The position numbers and the translations under genes were made by a program. DNA of 64,000 bases, from positions 113,880 through 177,879 of the forward strand of contig JAEEXI010000002.1 in NCBI GenBank assembly GCA_016291495.1, in the 5' to 3' direction. Below are positions 3,564-60,659 of the stretch, piece after piece (position 1 is the stretch's first letter; every line of letters begins with the position of its first letter). This DNA comes from Prevotella sp. (lineage in GTDB: Bacteria > Bacteroidota > Bacteroidia > Bacteroidales > Bacteroidaceae). The notes below the pieces were generated by a model. It worked only from the letters and a program-made list of their open reading frames with translations. It was not told where the DNA came from and made no database searches.

Positions 3564-4492
3564 TAAGATATACCTCTGCGCATACTGACGAGTGGAATCA
3601 GTTTGTGGCGAAGTCGAAGAACGGCACATTCCTCTTCGATCGTGGCTACATGGACTATCACGCTGACCGATTCCAAGACTATTCGTTGATGTTCTATTGC
3701 AAAGGACACTTGCTGGCCGTTCTGCCTGCGCATGTCGTTGGTGATGCGCTCTGTACGCATCGTGGACTGACCTATGGCGGATTGCTGATGAGCGAACAAC
3801 TGACGATAGCAGAGACAATGGTGCTGTTTCGTGAATTGAATGATATGCTACGTGGCGAAGGATTGAAGCATGTCAGTTACAAAGCCATCCCCTGGATATA
3901 TCACCGCTTGTCGGCAGAGGAGGACTTATATGCACTCTACCATGAGTGCAAGGCCCGTATCGTGGCTCGTGACTATTCCACAAACATATTTCTTGGAGCC
4001 AATCTGCGTTGGGAGCGCGTTCGTCGTCGTGGCGTCACCCGTGCCGAACGGGCAGGCATCCATGTGGAAATCAGCAACGACTATGCTGACTTCTGGCAGG
4101 TGTTGGCCGATAATCTTGGTACGAAATACGGTATCAAGCCTGTACATAGCCTTCAGGAGATAGAACTACTGCATAGTCGGTTTCCAAAGAACATCGTGCT
4201 CTATCAGGCAGTTCTCGATAGAAAGGTGTTAGGTGGTGTCGTCCTTTACGTGACTCCTCAGGTGGTACATGCCCAGTATAGTTCTGCCACACCGGAGGGC
4301 AAGAGTCTTGGTGCTATCGATGCTATCTACAACCGTATCATGCACCATGACTACAAAGACTATCCTTATTTCGACTTTGGTCGTTCTACGGAGAATCCTG
4401 ACGGCAGCGGTCTTAATGAGACACTCGTCTTCCAAAAGGAAGGTTTCGGAGCCCGCGGCTTGTGTTACGATATCTATGAGTACGACCTATAA
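3551..4492 (+). CDS. GNAT/FemAB-like acyltransferase
   Basis: NGTFLFDRGYMDYH, HRGLTYGG, FDFGRSTE, KEGFGARG; family often found near sugar-nucleotide genes. Confidence 0.75.
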   Translation: MFEIVRYTSAHTDEWNQFVAKSKNGTFLFDRGYMDYHADRFQDYSLMFYCKGHLLAVLPAHVVGDALCTHRGLTYGGLLMSEQLTIAETMVLFRELNDMLRGEGLKHVSYKAIPWIYHRLSAEEDLYALYHECKARIVARDYSTNIFLGANLRWERVRRRGVTRAERAGIHVEISNDYADFWQVLADNLGTKYGIKPVHSLQEIELLHSRFPKNIVLYQAVLDRKVLGGVVLYVTPQVVHAQYSSATPEGKSLGAIDAIYNRIMHHDYKDYPYFDFGRSTENPDGSGLNETLVFQKEGFGARGLCYDIYEYDL

Positions 4493-4499
4493 TCCTTCT

Positions 4500-5108
4500 T
4501 TATTCGTCTAACAGGAGTACGGTAGCGCTTCTTGCGGCTTGGGCACCCATGACGAGGACTTGTGCGATATCAGCCGTCTTCGAGGGACCGCTGATAAAGG
4601 TGCCATAACCGTAGTCGGACAGTCCGGCAACGGAATCGCCGGCACTGAGGCGCTTGTAGGCCTCGTGCATGTTGTTTACAATCTCCGACTTCTTTAGCAG
4701 GATGACCAGATTCTCGGAGATGAAGCAGACGGCTTTCTCCTTCATCTGCTGGGGAATCCACACGCAGGCATTCTCAGCCACACCGAAACTGCCGCGAACG
4801 ACGCCCACATCGGTGCCGTTCAGGTCGCGGGCCCGTCCCACCTCGTCGGGATTGCGCGTGGCGATGGTAATCTCGGGCAGGTTGGAGGCTATCTCCTTGG
4901 CATCGGGATAGAGCTCGCGGATGAGGTCGTTCACGTCGCGCCCCTTGTCCACCTCGATGGCATTGCCGCCCACGCTCTTGGTCATGTTCATAAACTGCAA
5001 CAGCGGGTCGGGGTAGGTGATGGCCTGGATGTCGCTCAGGTCGGGCATGTCGAACTGTTCGCGGATATTAGCCCTGTATTTCATCAATATATCTTCTTTA
5101 CTTGACAT
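4500..5108 (-). CDS. lutC: Lactate utilization protein C (LUD domain)
   Basis: GVAENACVW, FISGPSKTADI, GAQAARS; downstream of lutAB. Confidence 0.88.
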   Translation of the reverse strand: MSSKEDILMKYRANIREQFDMPDLSDIQAITYPDPLLQFMNMTKSVGGNAIEVDKGRDVNDLIRELYPDAKEIASNLPEITIATRNPDEVGRARDLNGTDVGVVRGSFGVAENACVWIPQQMKEKAVCFISENLVILLKKSEIVNNMHEAYKRLSAGDSVAGLSDYGYGTFISGPSKTADIAQVLVMGAQAARSATVLLLDE

Positions 5109-5137
5109 AATAAATTTTTTAGCGGTTTATTACTTTG

Positions 5138-5202
5138 GCGGCAGCAAATTCTTCACTCTTCACTCTTCACTTTTCACTCTTCACTTTTCACTATTCCCTT
5201 AA
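5138..5202. repeat. Solo arm: GCGGCAGCAAATT plus 7 heptamers (YTTCACT/ATTCCCT), overlapping the lutB 3' end
   Basis: Read directly: cttcact x3, tttcact, cttcact, tttcact, attccct, taa. Confidence 0.9.
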
Positions 5203-6553
5203 TAATCTCGTGGAACGGTTTCTTGGGGAACTCCATCATCTTATGACCTTCGGCCCACGGGTTCAGGCCGCAGTTCATCAGCGGTGAGGGAATGAGGTTG
5301 GCCCAGTGGGCAAGTCCGGTGGCAAAATTATAGAGCCCGGGCGAGCCGTAGAGCATGGACATGCCTTGGCACATGAGCTTCTTCTGCGGATTGGCGGTGC
5401 CGAAGTCGCTGAGCTGTTGGCGCCACAGGTAAATCTGGTCGCCCAGATTGACCTTGGCAGGACAAACGGTCTGACAAGAGTTGCAGAGCGTGCAGGCCGA
5501 CACGTTGCCCGAGTGCTTCTGCGGGTCGCGCAGCATGCCCAGGTTGATGCCGATGGGTCCGGGGATGAAGTAGCTGTAGCTGTAGCCTCCCGAGCGACGA
5601 TAGACGGGACAGGTGTTCATGCAAGAGCCGCAGCGGATGCACTTCAGCGATTCCCAGTGCTCAGGATTGCCTATCCACTCAGAGCGCCCGTTGTCCACCA
5701 GGATGATGTGCATGTGGTGAGCCGTGGGGCGGGCCTTGCGGAAATGCGAGGTGTAGGTGGTGGTGGGCTGACCGGTTCCTGCACGACAGAGCATGCGCTG
5801 GAAGACGGCAAGGCACTCGTAGTTGGGGATGACCTTCTCCAGTCCGATGGCGGCAATGTGCAGCCGCGGGCATGAGGTCGACATGTCGGCATTGCCCTCG
5901 TTGGTGCATACCACGATGTCGCCCGTCTCGGCAATACCGAAGTTGGCGCCCGTCATGCCGGCGTCGGCGGTCAGGAACTCGTTGCGCAAACTCAATCGGG
6001 CACGATAGGTCAGGAACGTGGGGTCGTGGTTGCCCTTCTCGTTCGAAATGCCTTTCTCCTCGAAAAGCTCGCCCACATCGTCGTGGTTCAGGTGGATGGC
6101 TGGCATCACGATATGGCTGGGTGCCTGACCCTTCAACTGGATAATGCGCTCGCCCAAGTCGGTTTCCACCACCTCGATGCCTCTTTCCTCAAGATAGGGA
6201 TTCATGCCACACTCCTCCGTCAGCATCGACTTCGACTTCACCATCTTCTTGACGTTATGGTTCTTCAGGATGCCATACACGATTTCGTTGAACTCGGCAG
6301 CATCCTTCGCCCAGTGAACCTCCACGCCGTTCTTCTCGGCATTGGTGGCAAACTGGTCCAGATATTCGTCCAGATGGGTAATGGTGTGGCGCTTGATCTG
6401 CGAGGCTTTCTCGCGCAGTTGTTCCCACTCGTCCAAGCCATAGGCCATATTGTCGCGCTTGGTGCGAACGGCCCAGAAGGTGGCGTCGTGCCAGTGGGCG
6501 TATTGCTGGTTCTTTAAGAACTCCTTGGCAGCTTTGCTATGCTGTGTACTCAT
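5174..6553 (-). CDS. lutB: Lactate utilization protein B (Fe-S subunit)
   Basis: KSKSMLTEE, ETDLGERIIQL, CIRCGSCMNTCP, CTLCNSCQTVCP. Confidence 0.93.
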   Translation of the reverse strand: MSTQHSKAAKEFLKNQQYAHWHDATFWAVRTKRDNMAYGLDEWEQLREKASQIKRHTITHLDEYLDQFATNAEKNGVEVHWAKDAAEFNEIVYGILKNHNVKKMVKSKSMLTEECGMNPYLEERGIEVVETDLGERIIQLKGQAPSHIVMPAIHLNHDDVGELFEEKGISNEKGNHDPTFLTYRARLSLRNEFLTADAGMTGANFGIAETGDIVVCTNEGNADMSTSCPRLHIAAIGLEKVIPNYECLAVFQRMLCRAGTGQPTTTYTSHFRKARPTAHHMHIILVDNGRSEWIGNPEHWESLKCIRCGSCMNTCPVYRRSGGYSYSYFIPGPIGINLGMLRDPQKHSGNVSACTLCNSCQTVCPAKVNLGDQIYLWRQQLSDFGTANPQKKLMCQGMSMLYGSPGLYNFATGLAHWANLIPSPLMNCGLNPWAEGHKMMEFPKKPFHEIIKGIVKSEE

Positions 6554-6555
6554 AA

Positions 6556-6712
6556 TTTAAGGTAAAAGTGAATAGTGAAAAGTGAAAAATTTACTTCCGC
6601 ACTTCTTGCTATTCATCTTTTTCTTTTGATAATCGTTAATACTATTGTTAATTCTCACTCAGGGACAGCGGTAGCAAATTATTCACTATTCCCTTTTCAC
6701 TATTCCCTTTTA
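6556..6712. repeat. Empty inverted-arm element: left arm 6556-6600, 67-bp spacer, right arm 6668-6712
   Basis: Left arm is 43/45 identical to 7444-7488; right arm is GCGGTAGCAAATT plus 4 heptamers and ends at the lutA stop codon. Confidence 0.88.
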
Positions 6713-7441
6713 CAGCCCCGCTGCTAAAATCTCTACTACGTGCTTGAACTCAATCTTCTTGCCTTGCTTGCGGGCTACACCAGCCATATGCATCAGACAA
6801 GAGCAGTCTGGACCAGTGATATACTCAGCACCCGTCTGGATATGACGCTCCACCTTGTCGAGTCCCATCTGGGCGGACACGGCGGTCTCCTCGACGCTGA
6901 ACATGCCGCCGAAGCCGCAGCACTCGTCAGGACGCTCAGGTTCCACGACATCGATGCCGTCAACCAATTGCAACAGGTCCTTGATCTTATTGAACTTCGC
7001 TACATGCTCCTCAGAAGGGGAGGAGAGTCCCAGCTCGCGAACACCATGACAGGAATTGTGCAGGCTGACCTTATGGGCAAAGGTGCCCAGACGGCGGTCG
7101 ACCTTCACCACGTCGTGCAGGAACTCGACCACGTCCATGCATCTCTTGGCGCTCTCGCACTCATGGTTCAGCAGTCGCGGATAGTTCAGACGGATAAACG
7201 CCGTACAACTGACACTGGGTGACACCACATAGTCGAAGTCCTTGAAGAGGTCGTCAAACTTCTCTGCCAAAGGAATGGCTTGTTTCTCGAATCCTGCATT
7301 GGCCATCGGCTGACCGCAGCAGGTCTGTTTCTGTGGATACGTGACATCCAGCCCCAGATGCTTCAGCAACTTATAGGTTGCCAAACCCACCTCAGGATAG
7401 ACAGCATCCACATAACAGGGAATGAATAATCCAATTTTCAT
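6710..7441 (-). CDS. lutA: Lactate utilization protein A (CCG-domain Fe-S protein)
   Basis: LFIPCYVD, QTCCGQP, HNSCHGVR, ECCGFGGMF, DCSCLMH. Confidence 0.93.
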   Translation of the reverse strand: MKIGLFIPCYVDAVYPEVGLATYKLLKHLGLDVTYPQKQTCCGQPMANAGFEKQAIPLAEKFDDLFKDFDYVVSPSVSCTAFIRLNYPRLLNHECESAKRCMDVVEFLHDVVKVDRRLGTFAHKVSLHNSCHGVRELGLSSPSEEHVAKFNKIKDLLQLVDGIDVVEPERPDECCGFGGMFSVEETAVSAQMGLDKVERHIQTGAEYITGPDCSCLMHMAGVARKQGKKIEFKHVVEILAAGL

Positions 7442-7497
7442 AGTTTAAGGTAAAAGTGAATAGTGAAAAGTGAATAATTTGCTTCCGCCATTCCTTT

Positions 7498-7875
7498 TCA
7501 CTTCATTTCATTATTTTGTTTCGTTGTTTTAATTGATGAAATCAGAAGAGCAAGTAACTCTTGGCAGTCTATATTCATGCTCTCGAATTCCTTTTCATTC
7601 AAATAATCAGTATCTTTTAGGATATTGAGCCAATAGAGGGTTTCGTTGCACTCTTTTAGTGCAATAGACAGTTTGTTGATGAAATCAGCTGGGCTTTGCG
7701 CATAGGTTGCCTCACTTACCAAAGCACCAATAGCTGTACCAGAGCGGAATATTTGATTAATCATTCCATACTCTTTAGGGCTACATTTGATAAATTTCAC
7801 CATCTTTACTATTCTCACTCCGAAGCAATAGCTTTTCTTCGTGAGTGGCGTATTATTATGTTGAATATAAGACAT
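7498..7875 (-). CDS. Four helix bundle protein (23S rRNA IVS-protein/Avd-like family)
   Basis: QIFRSGTAIGALVSEA..AQS..DFINKLSIALKECNETLYWL family signature; more AT-rich than its neighbours. Confidence 0.92.
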   Translation of the reverse strand: MSYIQHNNTPLTKKSYCFGVRIVKMVKFIKCSPKEYGMINQIFRSGTAIGALVSEATYAQSPADFINKLSIALKECNETLYWLNILKDTDYLNEKEFESMNIDCQELLALLISSIKTTKQNNEMK

Positions 7876-7967
7876 GCGGCAGCAAATCGTTTCTTTATTA
7901 TGCTTTGCCTCAGCGGCGGCAGCAAATCGTTTCTTTATTATGCTTGCCTCAGTGGCGGCAGCAAATT
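7876..7967. repeat. Tandem 40/39-bp duplication plus a third partial copy, each starting GCGGCAGCAAAT
   Basis: Copies at 7876-7915, 7916-7954 and 7955-7967. Confidence 0.92.
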
Positions 7968-7994
7968 ATTCACTTTTCACTATTCACTTTTCCC

Positions 7995-9599
7995 TTAAAT
8001 CACGTGCAACCCCAGGAACACCATCAGTCCATTCATCAATATCCAGAAGATAGCGAATGGCATCGTCCTGCGCATAATGTCGCCGTCCTGCCCCTCCATG
8101 TCGCAGGCGGCAGTAGCAATGGCGATCGACTGCGGTGAGAGCAGTTTACCGCCCTCAGAACCCGCACAGTTGGCAGCCGCGAGCCAGTTGGTCTCGCTAC
8201 CCGTAACGCCAAAGAAGGTGCCTTGGTTCACCAATCCGAGGTCGCTGGCAGCGGTAGCCTGCAACTTACCAAACAGGATGTTGGCATTGGTGGCTGATCC
8301 CGTTACGAAGGTTCCGATAGAACCAATCAGTGGAGCGAAGAAGGGGAAGGCTGCACCCGTCAGCAGGACGAGTCCCTTGGCAATGTCGTTGGTCATACCC
8401 GTGTTGTTCATCAGCATCGCCATCGCTACGAGACAGCAGATGGTCACGACCGTCTTCTGCAGGTTGAGCGTGGTCTTAGCCAACAACTTCAACAACTTGC
8501 CGATACTCATACCCTGAATCAGTCCACCGATGACGGCACCCAGGAAAATCATCAGACCTGCATTCGACAACCAACCGAACTTAAAGGTATTGCCAATGAC
8601 GGGCAACTCGAACTTGGTCACCAAAGTGTTGTTCAACAGCTCATTGACAGAAGGAACAATCTTGCTGCTGATCAGGATGAAGAAGATAATCAGTCCATAG
8701 ACACTCCATGCCTTCAGCGTCTTGACGACACCGAATTTGTGGTGTTCCACATGCACCGTATCCTTCTCAGCCTCATGGCGCAGGAACAGCTTGTTATACA
8801 GCAGCATGGCTGCGATGGCGGCTACAGAGCCCAGGATGGCGGGTGTCTCAGGACCGATGAAGTGGGCACAGCAGAACTGCACAGTGATAGAACAGGTTCC
8901 CACGAAGAGGGCAATAGTGATGTTCTTCACAATCTTCGTCTTGTCCGTCATCATCAGGATAAGGAACGGGGTGATGTAGAACATCAGCGAGAGCTGTAAT
9001 ATAATAAAGGTGGCCACCTCGCAGAGCTCCTCAGGCGTTGCCGTTCCACTTGCCGCCACTTGGTTGGCCAATGTCGTGGCAGGCAGACCGACGGCTCCGA
9101 AACCTACGGCAACCGTGTTTGCCACCAGACAGATAACGGCTGAGAACATGGGCTTGAAACCCAGTCCTATCAAGATGGCCGCAGGAATGGCTACAGCGGT
9201 GCCGAAACCAGCCATACCCTCCAGCACGCCACCAAGGCCCCACGTCAACAGCAGCACCAACAGTCCCTTGTCGCTGGTCATCTGGATAAACTGCGTCTTG
9301 ATAGTCTCAATCTCCTTCGTCTCACACAGGATATTGTAACTGAAGATGGCACAGATGATGATCAGGATAATGGGGAAACATGCCTTCAGCAGTCCTTCCA
9401 CCACTGACCATAAAGTGATGCCGAAGATACTGGCATCTGCAAACTTCTCGGGAATGATACCCATTGCAGGCACGGCAAACAATGCCAGGAGGATGGTCAC
9501 GATAAGGGTGACGATGGCACTCCTGTAGCCGGAAACCTTGAATCCCATCATCAGTACAATGAGTAACAGAATAGGGATTACGGATATTAATGCTGTCAT
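7995..9599 (-). CDS. lctP: L-lactate permease
   Basis: Many transmembrane segments; LEGMAGFGTAVAI, IGTFVTGSATNANILFG, LLSPQSIAIA. Confidence 0.93.
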   Translation of the reverse strand: MTALISVIPILLLIVLMMGFKVSGYRSAIVTLIVTILLALFAVPAMGIIPEKFADASIFGITLWSVVEGLLKACFPIILIIICAIFSYNILCETKEIETIKTQFIQMTSDKGLLVLLLTWGLGGVLEGMAGFGTAVAIPAAILIGLGFKPMFSAVICLVANTVAVGFGAVGLPATTLANQVAASGTATPEELCEVATFIILQLSLMFYITPFLILMMTDKTKIVKNITIALFVGTCSITVQFCCAHFIGPETPAILGSVAAIAAMLLYNKLFLRHEAEKDTVHVEHHKFGVVKTLKAWSVYGLIIFFILISSKIVPSVNELLNNTLVTKFELPVIGNTFKFGWLSNAGLMIFLGAVIGGLIQGMSIGKLLKLLAKTTLNLQKTVVTICCLVAMAMLMNNTGMTNDIAKGLVLLTGAAFPFFAPLIGSIGTFVTGSATNANILFGKLQATAASDLGLVNQGTFFGVTGSETNWLAAANCAGSEGGKLLSPQSIAIATAACDMEGQDGDIMRRTMPFAIFWILMNGLMVFLGLHVI

Positions 9600-9641
9600 A
9601 GGCTTTGTAGTTATTTGTGATTATTCTATAAGTTCTGGGGA

Positions 9642-9649
9642 CAAATATA
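9642..9649 (-). promoter_or_regulatory. Bacteroidota -7 promoter box for the lctP-lut operon
   Basis: TATATTTG on the minus strand, ~43 nt upstream of the lctP ATG. Confidence 0.65.
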
Positions 9650-9735
9650 CAAATTTTCCGTCATACCGCCATCAATTTTATGTGAAAGAATAATAAAAGA
9701 GCTACGAATTATTGGTAGCCTTCCCTTCGATGACA

Positions 9736-58292: not shown

Positions 58293-60659
58293 CTACTTCT
58301 TTTGCAAGTATTCATCCATATGGGCTGCCGCACGACGACCGTCGCCCATAGCAAGAATCACGGTAGCGCCACCACGGACGATGTCACCACCGGCGAAGAT
58401 TTCAGAACGAGCCGACTGCATGCCCTCGTTGACGACGATGGTGTTCTTGCGACCCAGTTCCAATCCCTTGATAGATTTAGGAACCAATGGATTGGGGGAT
58501 ACACCAACGGCAACGATAACCTGGTCAACTTCCAAGGTAACGGTCTTGCCCTCTACGGGAACAGGACTGCGACGGCCACTGGCATCTGGCTCACCGAGTT
58601 CCATGACCTGCAGAACGGCAGCCTTGACGGCACCGTTCTCGTCAGCGATGTACTCGATAGGATTGTGGAGCGTCAGGAAGTTGATACCTTCTTCCTTGGC
58701 ATGCTTCACTTCCTCCAGACGGGCAGGCATCTCTTGTTCAGAACGACGGTAGACGAGGGTAACGTTACCACCCAGACGCTTAGCCGTACGGCAAGAGTCC
58801 ATAGCGGTATTACCACCACCCACAACAAGTACGTTCTTACCCAGATTGATAGGTGTATCCGTCGTCGGGTTGGCAGCATCCATCAGGTTCACACGGGTGA
58901 GGTACTCATTTGACGACATGATATTGATGGCATTCTCGCCAGGAATATTCATGAAGTTAGGCAGACCGGCACCAGAACCTACGAAGACACCTTTGAAACC
59001 CTGCTGTTCCAGCGTCTCGACGCTGATGGTCTTACCAACGATGACGTCGGTCTGGAAGTGGACGCCCATCTTGGCAAGGTTCTCGATTTCCACGTCCACG
59101 ATCTTGTTGGGCAGACGGAACTCAGGGATACCGTATTTCAGCACACCGCCAATCTCGTGCAATGCCTCGAAGACATACACGTCATAACCTTTCTTCACCA
59201 TATCGCCAGCGAAGCTCAGTCCGGCAGGACCAGAGCCTACAACAGCAATCTTGATGCCGTTGGCAGGTGCAATCTCCGGCAGACTGATGTTGCCGCTCTC
59301 GCGCTCGTAGTCGGCAGCGAAGCGCTCCAGATAGCCGATGGCTACAGCGGGCTCGTTCATCTTCAGATGGATACACTTGCTCTCACACTGTTTCTCCTGG
59401 GGACAAACACGTCCACAGACTGCGGGTAGGGCAGAAGTGTCCTTCAGAACCTTAGCGGCAGCCAAGAAATCACCACGCTCGATATTCTTGACAAACGATG
59501 GGATGTTGATGTTGACAGGACAACCCTCGACACAGGTAGGCTTTGCGCAGTCCAGACAACGCTTGGCTTCCGTCATTGCCATCTCCTTGGTGAGTCCGAT
59601 GTTCACCTCCTCAATACGGGTGGTAGCGCGATAGACAGGGTCCAACTCCGGCATGATGACACGCTCGATGGCCGTGCGCTCCTTGGGTTTCATGCTCTTG
59701 CGGAGCTCTTCACGCCATGCAGCGTTGCGATCGGTCAGTACTTCAATGGGGTCGTTAGTGGAGTCGCTGTCCATCGTCACATCAGTGGCGGCAGCATTTT
59801 TTTCACTCTTCACTTTTCCCTCTTCACTTCCCATCAGATGCTCCTCATAATGCTCCAGTTCTTCTTGCTCGGCACGCTTGAAGGTGCCCATGCGCTTGAA
59901 CATCTCGTCCCAATCGACGAGAGCACCGTCAAATTCAGGACCGTCGATGCAGACGAACTTCGTCTTGCCACCAATCGTCAGACGACAGGCACCACACATA
60001 CCTGTACCATCAACCATAATGGTGTTGAGGCTGACCTCACAAGGGATATTGTATTTTTGGGCAGTGAGGTTGGAGAACTTCATCATGATGGGAGGGCCGA
60101 TGGCAAATACCTTGTCGACATGCGGTTCCTGTTGGATGAACTTCTCAATACCAACAGTTACCACACCTTTCTCACCATAACTGCCGTCATCGGTCATGAT
60201 GATGACTTCGTCTGATGACTCACGTACCTTATCTTCAAGGATAATCAAATCCTTTGAACGGCCTGCCATTACAGAGAGAACACGGTTGCCGGCGGCCTTC
60301 AGAGCCTGGATGATAGGCAACATGGGTGCCACACCCAGTCCACCACCGGCACATACGACCGTACCGTAGTTCTCAATGTGGGTGGGATTACCCAATGGAC
60401 CAACTACGTCAGCCACATACTCGCCTTCTTTCAAGGCACAAAGTTTCTTGGAAGAAAGTCCTACCATCTGTACGACCAGAGTAATGGTACCTTTGTCAAT
60501 ATCGGCACCGGCAATGGTCAGAGGCATACGTTCACCTTTCTGGTCAACACGTACAATCACGAAATTACCAGCCTTACGGCTTTTCGCAATCAATGGAGCC
60601 TCAATCTCAAAAAGGAAAACCTTCTCTGAGAACTGCTCTTTTCTTACAATTTTATTCAT
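58293..60659 (-). CDS. Fused NfnA-NfnB-type transhydrogenase (DHOD-B NAD-binding plus GltD-like)
   Basis: GERMPLTI, GTGMCGACR, CIDGPEFD; CLDCAKPTCVEGCP, VCPQEKQCE, GSGPAGL, GGGNTAMD. Confidence 0.88.
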   Translation of the reverse strand: MNKIVRKEQFSEKVFLFEIEAPLIAKSRKAGNFVIVRVDQKGERMPLTIAGADIDKGTITLVVQMVGLSSKKLCALKEGEYVADVVGPLGNPTHIENYGTVVCAGGGLGVAPMLPIIQALKAAGNRVLSVMAGRSKDLIILEDKVRESSDEVIIMTDDGSYGEKGVVTVGIEKFIQQEPHVDKVFAIGPPIMMKFSNLTAQKYNIPCEVSLNTIMVDGTGMCGACRLTIGGKTKFVCIDGPEFDGALVDWDEMFKRMGTFKRAEQEELEHYEEHLMGSEEGKVKSEKNAAATDVTMDSDSTNDPIEVLTDRNAAWREELRKSMKPKERTAIERVIMPELDPVYRATTRIEEVNIGLTKEMAMTEAKRCLDCAKPTCVEGCPVNINIPSFVKNIERGDFLAAAKVLKDTSALPAVCGRVCPQEKQCESKCIHLKMNEPAVAIGYLERFAADYERESGNISLPEIAPANGIKIAVVGSGPAGLSFAGDMVKKGYDVYVFEALHEIGGVLKYGIPEFRLPNKIVDVEIENLAKMGVHFQTDVIVGKTISVETLEQQGFKGVFVGSGAGLPNFMNIPGENAINIMSSNEYLTRVNLMDAANPTTDTPINLGKNVLVVGGGNTAMDSCRTAKRLGGNVTLVYRRSEQEMPARLEEVKHAKEEGINFLTLHNPIEYIADENGAVKAAVLQVMELGEPDASGRRSPVPVEGKTVTLEVDQVIVAVGVSPNPLVPKSIKGLELGRKNTIVVNEGMQSARSEIFAGGDIVRGGATVILAMGDGRRAAAHMDEYLQKK
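59784..59832. repeat. Solo arm of the GCGGCAGCA/TTCACT family inside a CDS
   Basis: AGTGGCGGCAGCATTTTTTTCACTCTTCACTTTTCCCTCTTCACTTCCC versus 7951-7994. Confidence 0.8.

Follow-up and report, generated by a model that had tools for sequence, protein, structure and literature searches.

The lactate operon lctP-4HB-lutA-lutB-lutC, which spans positions 4500 to 9599 on the minus strand of a 64,000-nt stretch of a rumen Prevotella sp. genome (assembly GCA_016291495.1, contig JAEEXI010000002.1; hereafter the window, whose numbering we use), is occupied at all three of its junctions (lctP-lutA, lutA-lutB, and lutB-lutC) by elements with arms of tandem heptamers, and the element between lctP and lutA carries a gene for a four-helix-bundle (4HB) protein of the 23S_rRNA_IVP/S23p family (PF05635). 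We consider these elements to be, more probably than not, members of a lineage-specific family of about 47 copies within a widespread class of mobile intercistronic cassettes, an explanation that includes putative processing of the transcript at the arms and putative recognition of the arms by the 4HB protein. We denote the source genome as G000 and its contigs by C-numbers; other G- and L-numbers are genomes and loci of relatives.

Read in the sense of the mRNA, the common arm runs from UUAAGG through AGUGAAN heptamers to AAUUUGCURCCGC. The initial annotation had reported one arm at all three lut junctions in loaded, empty, and solo states, and this is borne out by the coordinates and by the core GCGGHAGYAAATT (with at most one mismatch), which has seven copies in the window against 0.36 expected, a count that none of 100 shuffled sequences reached. 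In the loaded element, the two arms (7444-7490 and 7953-7999) are 47 nt each and 96% complementary. The left (5′) arm at 7953-7999 on the minus strand reads UUUAAGGG, then heptamers (AAAGUGA/AUAGUGA), then AAUUUGCUGCCGCC, and it starts with the stop codon of lctP, whose TAA is embedded in the terminal TTTAAGG; the right (3′) arm (7444-7490, minus strand) stops 2 nt short of the lutA ATG, with the end CCTTAAACT directly before that ATG and likewise at the lutA/lutB junction. The empty element, also on the minus strand, consists of a left arm (6661-6713) that starts with the TAA stop of lutA, an AT-rich spacer (loop) of 60 nt between the arms (6601-6660), and a right arm (6555-6600) that ends 3 nt before the lutB ATG and is 91% identical to 7438-7493; each of its arms is 82-91% complementary to one arm of the loaded copy. 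The proposed arm geometry, from the upstream stop codon to 2-3 nt before the next ATG, thereby matches the sequence at both the loaded and the empty element. The third element, a solo left-type arm of seven heptamers and a core (5136-5205, minus strand), is followed by 29 nt and then the lutC ATG, and it encodes the last eight codons of LutB together with the TGA stop. We aligned the empty with the loaded element as a possible internal deletion of it: the arms align (37/42 and 48/51), and the interior gave scattered blocks of 3-12 nt with no convincing homology.

The loaded element contains two extra units of 40 and 39 nt (7876-7952, minus strand), each ending in the arm core GAUUUGCUGCCGC, with 7876-7905 and 7916-7945 being 100% identical; the core is in this way triplicated across 7876-7967, and the innermost copy adjoins the ATG of the 4HB gene. 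These units are not present in the orthologous cassettes L011-L014. The same two positions distinguish left from right arms both in the window and in most of the L011-L015 cassettes (GCU[A/G]CCGC on the left vs. GCUUCCGC on the right, and AAGGG vs. AAGGU), which amounts to conserved purine-purine mismatches in the predicted stem. There is no transposase inside the loaded element, and its flanks are lctP and lutA, in keeping with the earlier description of a transposase-free element residing in an mRNA junction. A fourth arm had been placed at 59784, and one is indeed present there (59784-59832, minus strand), but it is degenerate (two core mismatches) and is read in frame as part of a 788-aa open reading frame (ORF). 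This ORF (58293-60659) is a fusion of an NfnA-like and a GltD/NfnB-like part with the arm-encoded linker GSEEGKVKSEKNAAA, in which one heptamer is GAGGGAA; the consensus GAGTGAA would place a TGA in frame.

The association of the 4HB gene with heptamer arms extends well past this operon. G000 has only five PF05635 genes, and heptamer arrays flank all five, each with a different unit (GTTGAGA, TTAATGC, GAATTGA, TGTCAAC, and AGTGAAN). With an alignment of four sequences as query, we collected 80 loci encoding relatives of the G000 4HB proteins, one genome per species, from Bacteroidota, Gammaproteobacteria, Cyanobacteria, Nitrospirales, Planctomycetota, Desulfobacterales, Campylobacterota, Chlorobiota, and others, and 77 of them were analysable. 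The ORF is bracketed by an upstream array and its reverse complement downstream in 62 of the 77 loci (local alignment score ≥ 28). When the same test was applied to all 2239 gene calls of G000, the 99th percentile of the score was 27, and a stricter filter was passed by three genes, namely two 4HB genes and lutB, the latter having an element on either side. Enrichment of the arms around 4HB genes had been expected, and it holds for heptamer arms generally (62/77 loci vs. 3/2239 genes), but not for the arm family of the window, of which 46 out of about 48 copies in G000 are solo or empty. In 53 of the 62 bracketed loci, the gene upstream has the same orientation and terminates at or within the left arm; in 45 of the 62, the gene downstream is co-oriented, and its ATG mostly falls 0-20 nt past the right arm. 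Left arms are A-rich and C-poor, with the unit consensus A-R-N-T-R-A-N, and each unit holds a stop codon on the sense strand; all three sense frames are stopped in 43 of these 62 cases, and two or more in 59.

A full cassette is a promoter-less PF05635 gene in sense orientation between inverted arrays of 4-5 heptamers, with neighbours that are co-directional. Its left arm begins at, or supplies, the upstream stop and stops all three frames, its right arm ends a few nucleotides before the next ATG, and both neighbouring genes would stay translatable because of this placement at stop and start. Empty pairs and solo arms would be non-autonomous or decayed derivatives. The pentameric 4HB protein may recognise its own array of 4-5 units, and the protein, together with host enzymes, would be required for the spread or retention of arms.

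The association is also visible between genomes. We counted period-7-type arrays (Tandem Repeats Finder, TRF, score ≥ 40) in the whole of G000 and in seven relatives sampled at 340-400 kb. The number of arrays per Mb was 10 in G009, 25 in G018, and 15 in G038, which have no PF05635 gene, and 10 in G022, which has one, against 141 in G017 (four genes), 131 in G000 (five genes), 249 in G016 (11 genes), and 106 in G005 (12 genes). Genomes with 0-1 gene and genomes with at least four are fully separated, 4 vs. 4 (exact two-sided rank test, calculated by hand: P = 0.029), and the array counts of the former are at about the level of shuffled sequence. Across the 62 bracketed loci, protein similarity was correlated with heptamer similarity (Mantel r = 0.33, P ≤ 0.0005), a relationship that shared descent confounds.

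A broader proposal can be made: that PF05635 4HB genes belong with heptamer arrays to a single self-propagating system, free of transposases and present in many phyla, in which the pentamer recognises 4-5 cognate heptamers and drives spread into stop/start junctions, the intervening sequences (IVSs) of 23S rRNA being its rRNA-resident members and the intergenic heptamer excess (STRR, TAACTGA, and others) being largely its footprint. We advance this tentatively, as a possibility that we would not at present back against its being wrong.

The arms might instead be ordinary ends of miniature inverted-repeat transposable elements (MITEs), moved in trans by a transposase encoded elsewhere, with the 4HB gene a mere passenger. 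Features in line with MITEs are plain enough: terminal inverted repeats of 47 nt, TTAA at both outer ends (although this TTAA belongs to the inverted repeat), short non-coding copies, and multiple copies with insertion polymorphism between and within species. Hairpin-type empty copies also occur, with two further ones in G000 (C16:109536-109637 and C3:153857-153946), and copy number is lineage-specific and burst-like, the arm pattern being found 47 times in G000, 23 times in its closest relative, 9, 4, 3, and 2 times in four others, and not at all in 35 of 40 relatives. A passenger, however, would not be expected to be the constant partner of the arms across phyla, as the 4HB gene is in the 62 loci, nor do MITE ends account for five different heptamer arm types in G000, each around a 4HB gene, or for arrays at background in genomes without 4HB genes. 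The neighbours of the arms that we examined are HU-like proteins and operon genes, with no transposase beside any examined arm (no exhaustive search for insertion sequences was made), and no clean target-site duplication was found. We regard a MITE origin as unlikely.

The first of these hairpin-type copies (C16:109536-109637) has two arms and a 27-nt loop and exactly spans the interval from the acpP stop to the fabF ATG, in the acpP-fabF-rnc operon, which encodes RNase III. The second (C3:153857-153946) is an arm pair with a 22-nt loop lying in frame in a 188-aa ORF (153576-154142) that resembles an extracytoplasmic function (ECF) sigma factor, as if the pair were tolerated as a domain linker.

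Neisseria Correia/NEMIS elements, which are MITEs, offer a parallel. These are short inverted-repeat elements in the intergenic parts of operons, co-transcribed, with hairpins cut by RNase III, and they have many copies, presence/absence polymorphism, and defined TA duplications. The window family resembles them in consisting of inverted repeats in operon gaps, multi-copy and polymorphic, and differs in having tandem-heptamer ends and an autonomous-looking form that carries the 4HB gene; Correia elements are not known to have a coding variant or heptamer arrays.

Comparison with relatives bears directly on whether the elements move. The closest relative, whose LutB is 95% identical, has neither arms nor a 4HB gene; its lutA and lutB genes share an ATGA overlap, lutB and lutC one at ATGAGTAG, and lctP is separated from lutA by 57 nt of unrelated sequence. 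Most other congeners share these compact lut junctions. In bovine and rumen metagenomes, contigs of the same species (identical LutA) are fixed for the loaded and empty elements and polymorphic for the lutB/lutC solo arm, which some carry and some do not. Judged from these alignments, the elements at all three lut junctions are recent gains, and the presence/absence variation that the initial annotation took as a test exists both in the arm-less junctions of the closest relative and within the species. Its notion of spread is also supported, since the same cassette is found at different junctions in other species: orthologous cassettes, with 4HB proteins 79-89% identical and the same arms, occupy four further junctions in Prevotella genomes other than G000 (lutB|lutC, cupin regulator|acyl-CoA synthetase, nusA|infB, and X|argG), and argC|argD has a cassette that is more distant (67% identical) and whose arms are of a related AGTGAAG type. 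The cassette is, on this distribution of orthologues, mobile between junctions. In a few congeners the lutB/lutC junction carries unrelated heptamer arrays; at L005 (G010) it has (AGTGAAG)n and AATTCAACGGC followed by (AAGTTCA)x11, and at L003 (G005) it has TTGAACT-type units. Such differing arrays at one junction in different species point to its repeated colonisation.

The alignment of orthologous lut operons had been expected to reveal both empty sites and target duplications; the empty sites were found, but filled and empty alleles gave no clean duplication, the spacer being replaced or the flanks diverged. Filled and empty lutB|lutC alleles differ in their flanks too, with the lutC start reading ATGTCAAGT in the one and ATGAGTAGC in the other. 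The lutB|lutC cassette of L011 and the G000 solo arm share a derived lutC start (ATGTCAAG), and the solo arm matches the left arm of that cassette at the same junction. Because the derived start is shared, the solo arm is most plausibly the remaining left arm of such a cassette, whose cargo and right arm were lost.

These comparisons also bear on a non-mobile reading, in which the arrays would be host regulatory sites made in place by slippage, acting in post-transcriptional or translational control upstream of starts, as proposed for TAACTGA, with 4HB proteins as host binding factors. The arrays do hug start codons in forward orientation, as they also do in PMC4679880, the arms are conserved despite saturated synonymous sites, and two further solo sites that we examined (C11:94926 and C20:14390) are fixed in all conspecific contigs found. 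Slippage in place is hard to reconcile, however, with orthologous junctions that are compact overlaps in the closest relative, with a solo arm polymorphic within the species, with a specific 13-nt core plus heptamers at 47 sites and at none in most congeners, and with the same cassette in unrelated operons of different species; nor does slippage-driven variation resemble the sharp peak of array length at 4-5 units (274/376 arrays). We give this reading little credence.

Both components of the cassette are evidently under purifying selection, judging from substitution patterns among orthologues. The 4HB protein has dN/dS of 0.04-0.12 against its orthologues, with synonymous sites saturated (pS ~0.68), and the arms of orthologous cassettes differ by 1-3 nt only, so that the arm sequence itself is constrained.

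Arms and arrays are abundant in G000 (2.88 Mb, 48% GC), which has 41 core motifs and 69 TTCACTN arrays, and most copies of the arm are solo, occupying the whole gap from a stop codon to the next ATG. TRF returned 411 period-7 arrays in G000 and 63 in a shuffled genome, and 199 of the G000 arrays close every reading frame with a stop on one strand and none on the other.

At the RNA level, the loaded cassette is predicted to fold with a 47-bp terminal stem (minimum free energy −177 kcal/mol, z = −9.25), and G000 encodes RNase III (rnc, C16:107787-108170). By analogy with S23p-type 23S rRNA IVSs, the arms in the operon transcript might pair into this modelled stem and become an RNase III substrate, and the cut would free the cargo RNA and part lctP from lutABC. 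In the IVS in helix 45 of Coxiella burnetii 23S rRNA, an S23p (PF05635) ORF is accompanied by a 28-bp terminal stem and, 5′ of the ORF, by three tandem GACAGAT heptamers whose number varies between strains, and RNase III cleaves at the start of the first repeat, inside the stem (PMC4990558). The loaded element shares with the 23S IVSs (Coxiella; Leptospira, Brucella, Haemophilus) a sense PF05635 ORF and terminal inverted repeats, and with that of Coxiella the heptamers 5′ of the ORF, here the AGUGAAN units of the left arm, so that the IVS-like anatomy proposed at the outset is well matched (PMC4990558). It differs in lying between lctP and lutA in an mRNA and not in helix 25 or 45 of a 23S rRNA gene, in having arms that abut stop and start codons, in being accompanied by many empty and solo arms, and in its ORF, which is reported to be decaying in Coxiella, whereas the window protein is under strong purifying selection. 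A search of 4400-9700 against Rfam gave no meaningful match, all hits being chance ones that fell short of the threshold; the 20 related loci tested for rRNA had none; and the conserved sarcin-ricin loop motif of 23S rRNA has no copy in the G000 assembly, in which we therefore found no 23S gene for comparison.

The 4HB fold raises a further possibility, that the cassette spreads in RNA form by way of a reverse transcriptase (RT), with the 4HB protein acting like Avd. Avd, the accessory protein of diversity-generating retroelements, is a pentameric four-helix bundle that binds nucleic acid and a partner enzyme. The window protein is in the same four-helix-bundle pentamer fold family, PF05635 is listed with Avd (PMC10053308), and weak PF05635 matches lie beside RT genes in several relatives (e.g., G033:C646, G029:C270, and G026:C64). 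The window cassette differs in that it has no adjacent RT or template/variable repeats, the only RT matches in G000 being on a different contig (C22:49400-51426). Nor does RT copy number follow the load of 4HB genes or arrays: G016, with 11 4HB genes and 249 arrays per Mb, has no RT, and neither does G015, with five 4HB genes and 23 arms, whereas G018 has six RTs and no 4HB gene. We rejected RT-mediated spread on these counts as highly improbable.

Several observations weigh against the mobile-cassette explanation that we favour. Clear arms are lacking in 15 of the 77 loci, and the 80 loci represent one clade of the family, as they are the closest relatives of the G000 copies. The genome-level association comes from eight genomes only, seven of them sampled at 340-400 kb. 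Mismatches in the arms show no excess of G·U over A·C (57 vs. 51), a negative outcome for selection on an RNA-level stem, and the complementarity of the arms may accordingly reflect common origin or protein recognition in place of such selection. The lack of a clean target-site duplication in the filled/empty comparisons counts here as well. Solo arms far exceed loaded cassettes (about 376 arrays vs. five genes), for which simple decay is a poor explanation, and PF05635 is not known to have catalytic activity. The earlier interpretation as an IVS-like, transposase-free mRNA-junction element is, as far as sequence comparison reaches, partly supported, the support being in anatomy, mobility, and generality.

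Intergenic heptamer repeats have a literature of their own. In Beggiatoaceae, Cyanobacteria, and Bacteroidetes, TAACTGA arrays sit a few nucleotides 5′ of start codons (MacGregor 2015, PMC4679880), as described in a paper that contains neither “23S” nor “four helix”; GGGAATC and GGGGAYT arrays and a general heptamer excess were described by Rehm 2015 (PMC4692102); an excess of heptamers among long simple sequence repeats is attributed to Mrazek 2007 by the papers that cite it (PMC4679880, PMC4692102); and heptanucleotide elements are reported in Geobacter (PMC2700814). Intergenic heptamer repeats are described as unexplained (PMC4679880, PMC4692102). The arrays of G000 resemble the TAACTGA/STRR-type repeats, including cyanobacterial STRR, in having tandem 7-nt units, typically about four copies, in an intergenic position often a few nucleotides 5′ of a start, in stopping three frames in forward orientation, in occasional inverted pairs, and in a patchy phylogenetic distribution. 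They differ in being tied to PF05635 both locally and genome-wide, while the papers on the TAACTGA/STRR type report no partner gene. The 4HB family is mentioned in none of the papers cited here on intergenic heptamers. In the open literature, with subscription-only papers outside reach, we found no paper linking intergenic heptamer repeats with the 4HB family. The initial annotation had called the system undescribed, which is right for the link between S23p IVSs and intergenic arrays and for the mRNA setting, but not for the repeat types, because the heptamers of S23p IVSs and the intergenic arrays were both already published. There is a credible chance that S23p-type IVSs outside rRNA, linked to intergenic heptamer repeats, are a distinct element system, and such elements may be where the excess of 7-base repeats between bacterial genes comes from.

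Such a link ties together three puzzles that are decades old: the nature of 23S rRNA IVSs and their S23p ORFs, the function of 4HB genes common in Bacteroidota, Cyanobacteria, and others, and the excess of intergenic 7-base repeats. It is testable, having a defined protein, a cis element, and an insertion geometry. The cassettes sit in essential operons (nusA-infB, acpP-fabF-rnc, arg, and lut) and may split or modulate polycistronic mRNAs, and their arms create new C-termini and gene fusions, examples being the tail of LutB and the linker between NfnA and NfnB. The cassettes can also mislead annotation by guilt of association. 23S_rRNA_IVP genes within cas operons, e.g., between cmr3 and cmr2, have been read as Cas-associated (PMC3936711), and they fit the pattern of intercistronic insertion.

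All genes of the host operon are on the minus strand and were assigned by Pfam: lctP (7995-9599, PF02652), the 4HB gene (7498-7875, 125 aa, PF05635, E = 1.2e-24), which is on the same strand as the operon that holds it, lutA (6710-7441), lutB (5174-6553), and lutC (4500-5108). The nearest solved structure to the 125-aa protein by sequence is PDB 2RLD (E = 8.9e-32), which has five chains. The PF05635 family motif is GxxRxxxSxxxNxxE (PMC3936711); in the window protein and its orthologues L011-L015, A and L replace the S and N of this motif (RSGTAIGALVSE), and both residues are kept in the other 4HB paralogues of G000.

Some arms and arrays elsewhere in G000 have particular surroundings. Eight arms in right orientation (C1:6183, C2:37135, C3:2211, C5:5369, C8:11528, C25:9505, C22:87882, and C27:29256), most with the right-arm core variant GCGGAAGC and several near contig ends, lie directly 5′ of Bacteroidetes-type promoter boxes (TTTG ... 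TAnnTTTG). At C18:196880, C11:8956, and C18:266584, paralogous genes for HU-like DNA-binding proteins with G/N-rich tails run right up to an arm, and at two of these three genes the arm is followed by other heptamer arrays (AGGTAAG, or AGTGAAG with a GCCAGATT-type core). An HU-like gene is also what recurs beside arms at contig ends. The cassette with the 4HB gene at C27:16323-16697 is followed by a 64-aa ORF and then by an (AGGTGAG/AGGTAAG)n array (C27:16900-17000). GAGAGGT-type units are the commonest heptamer family in G000, with 45 arrays.

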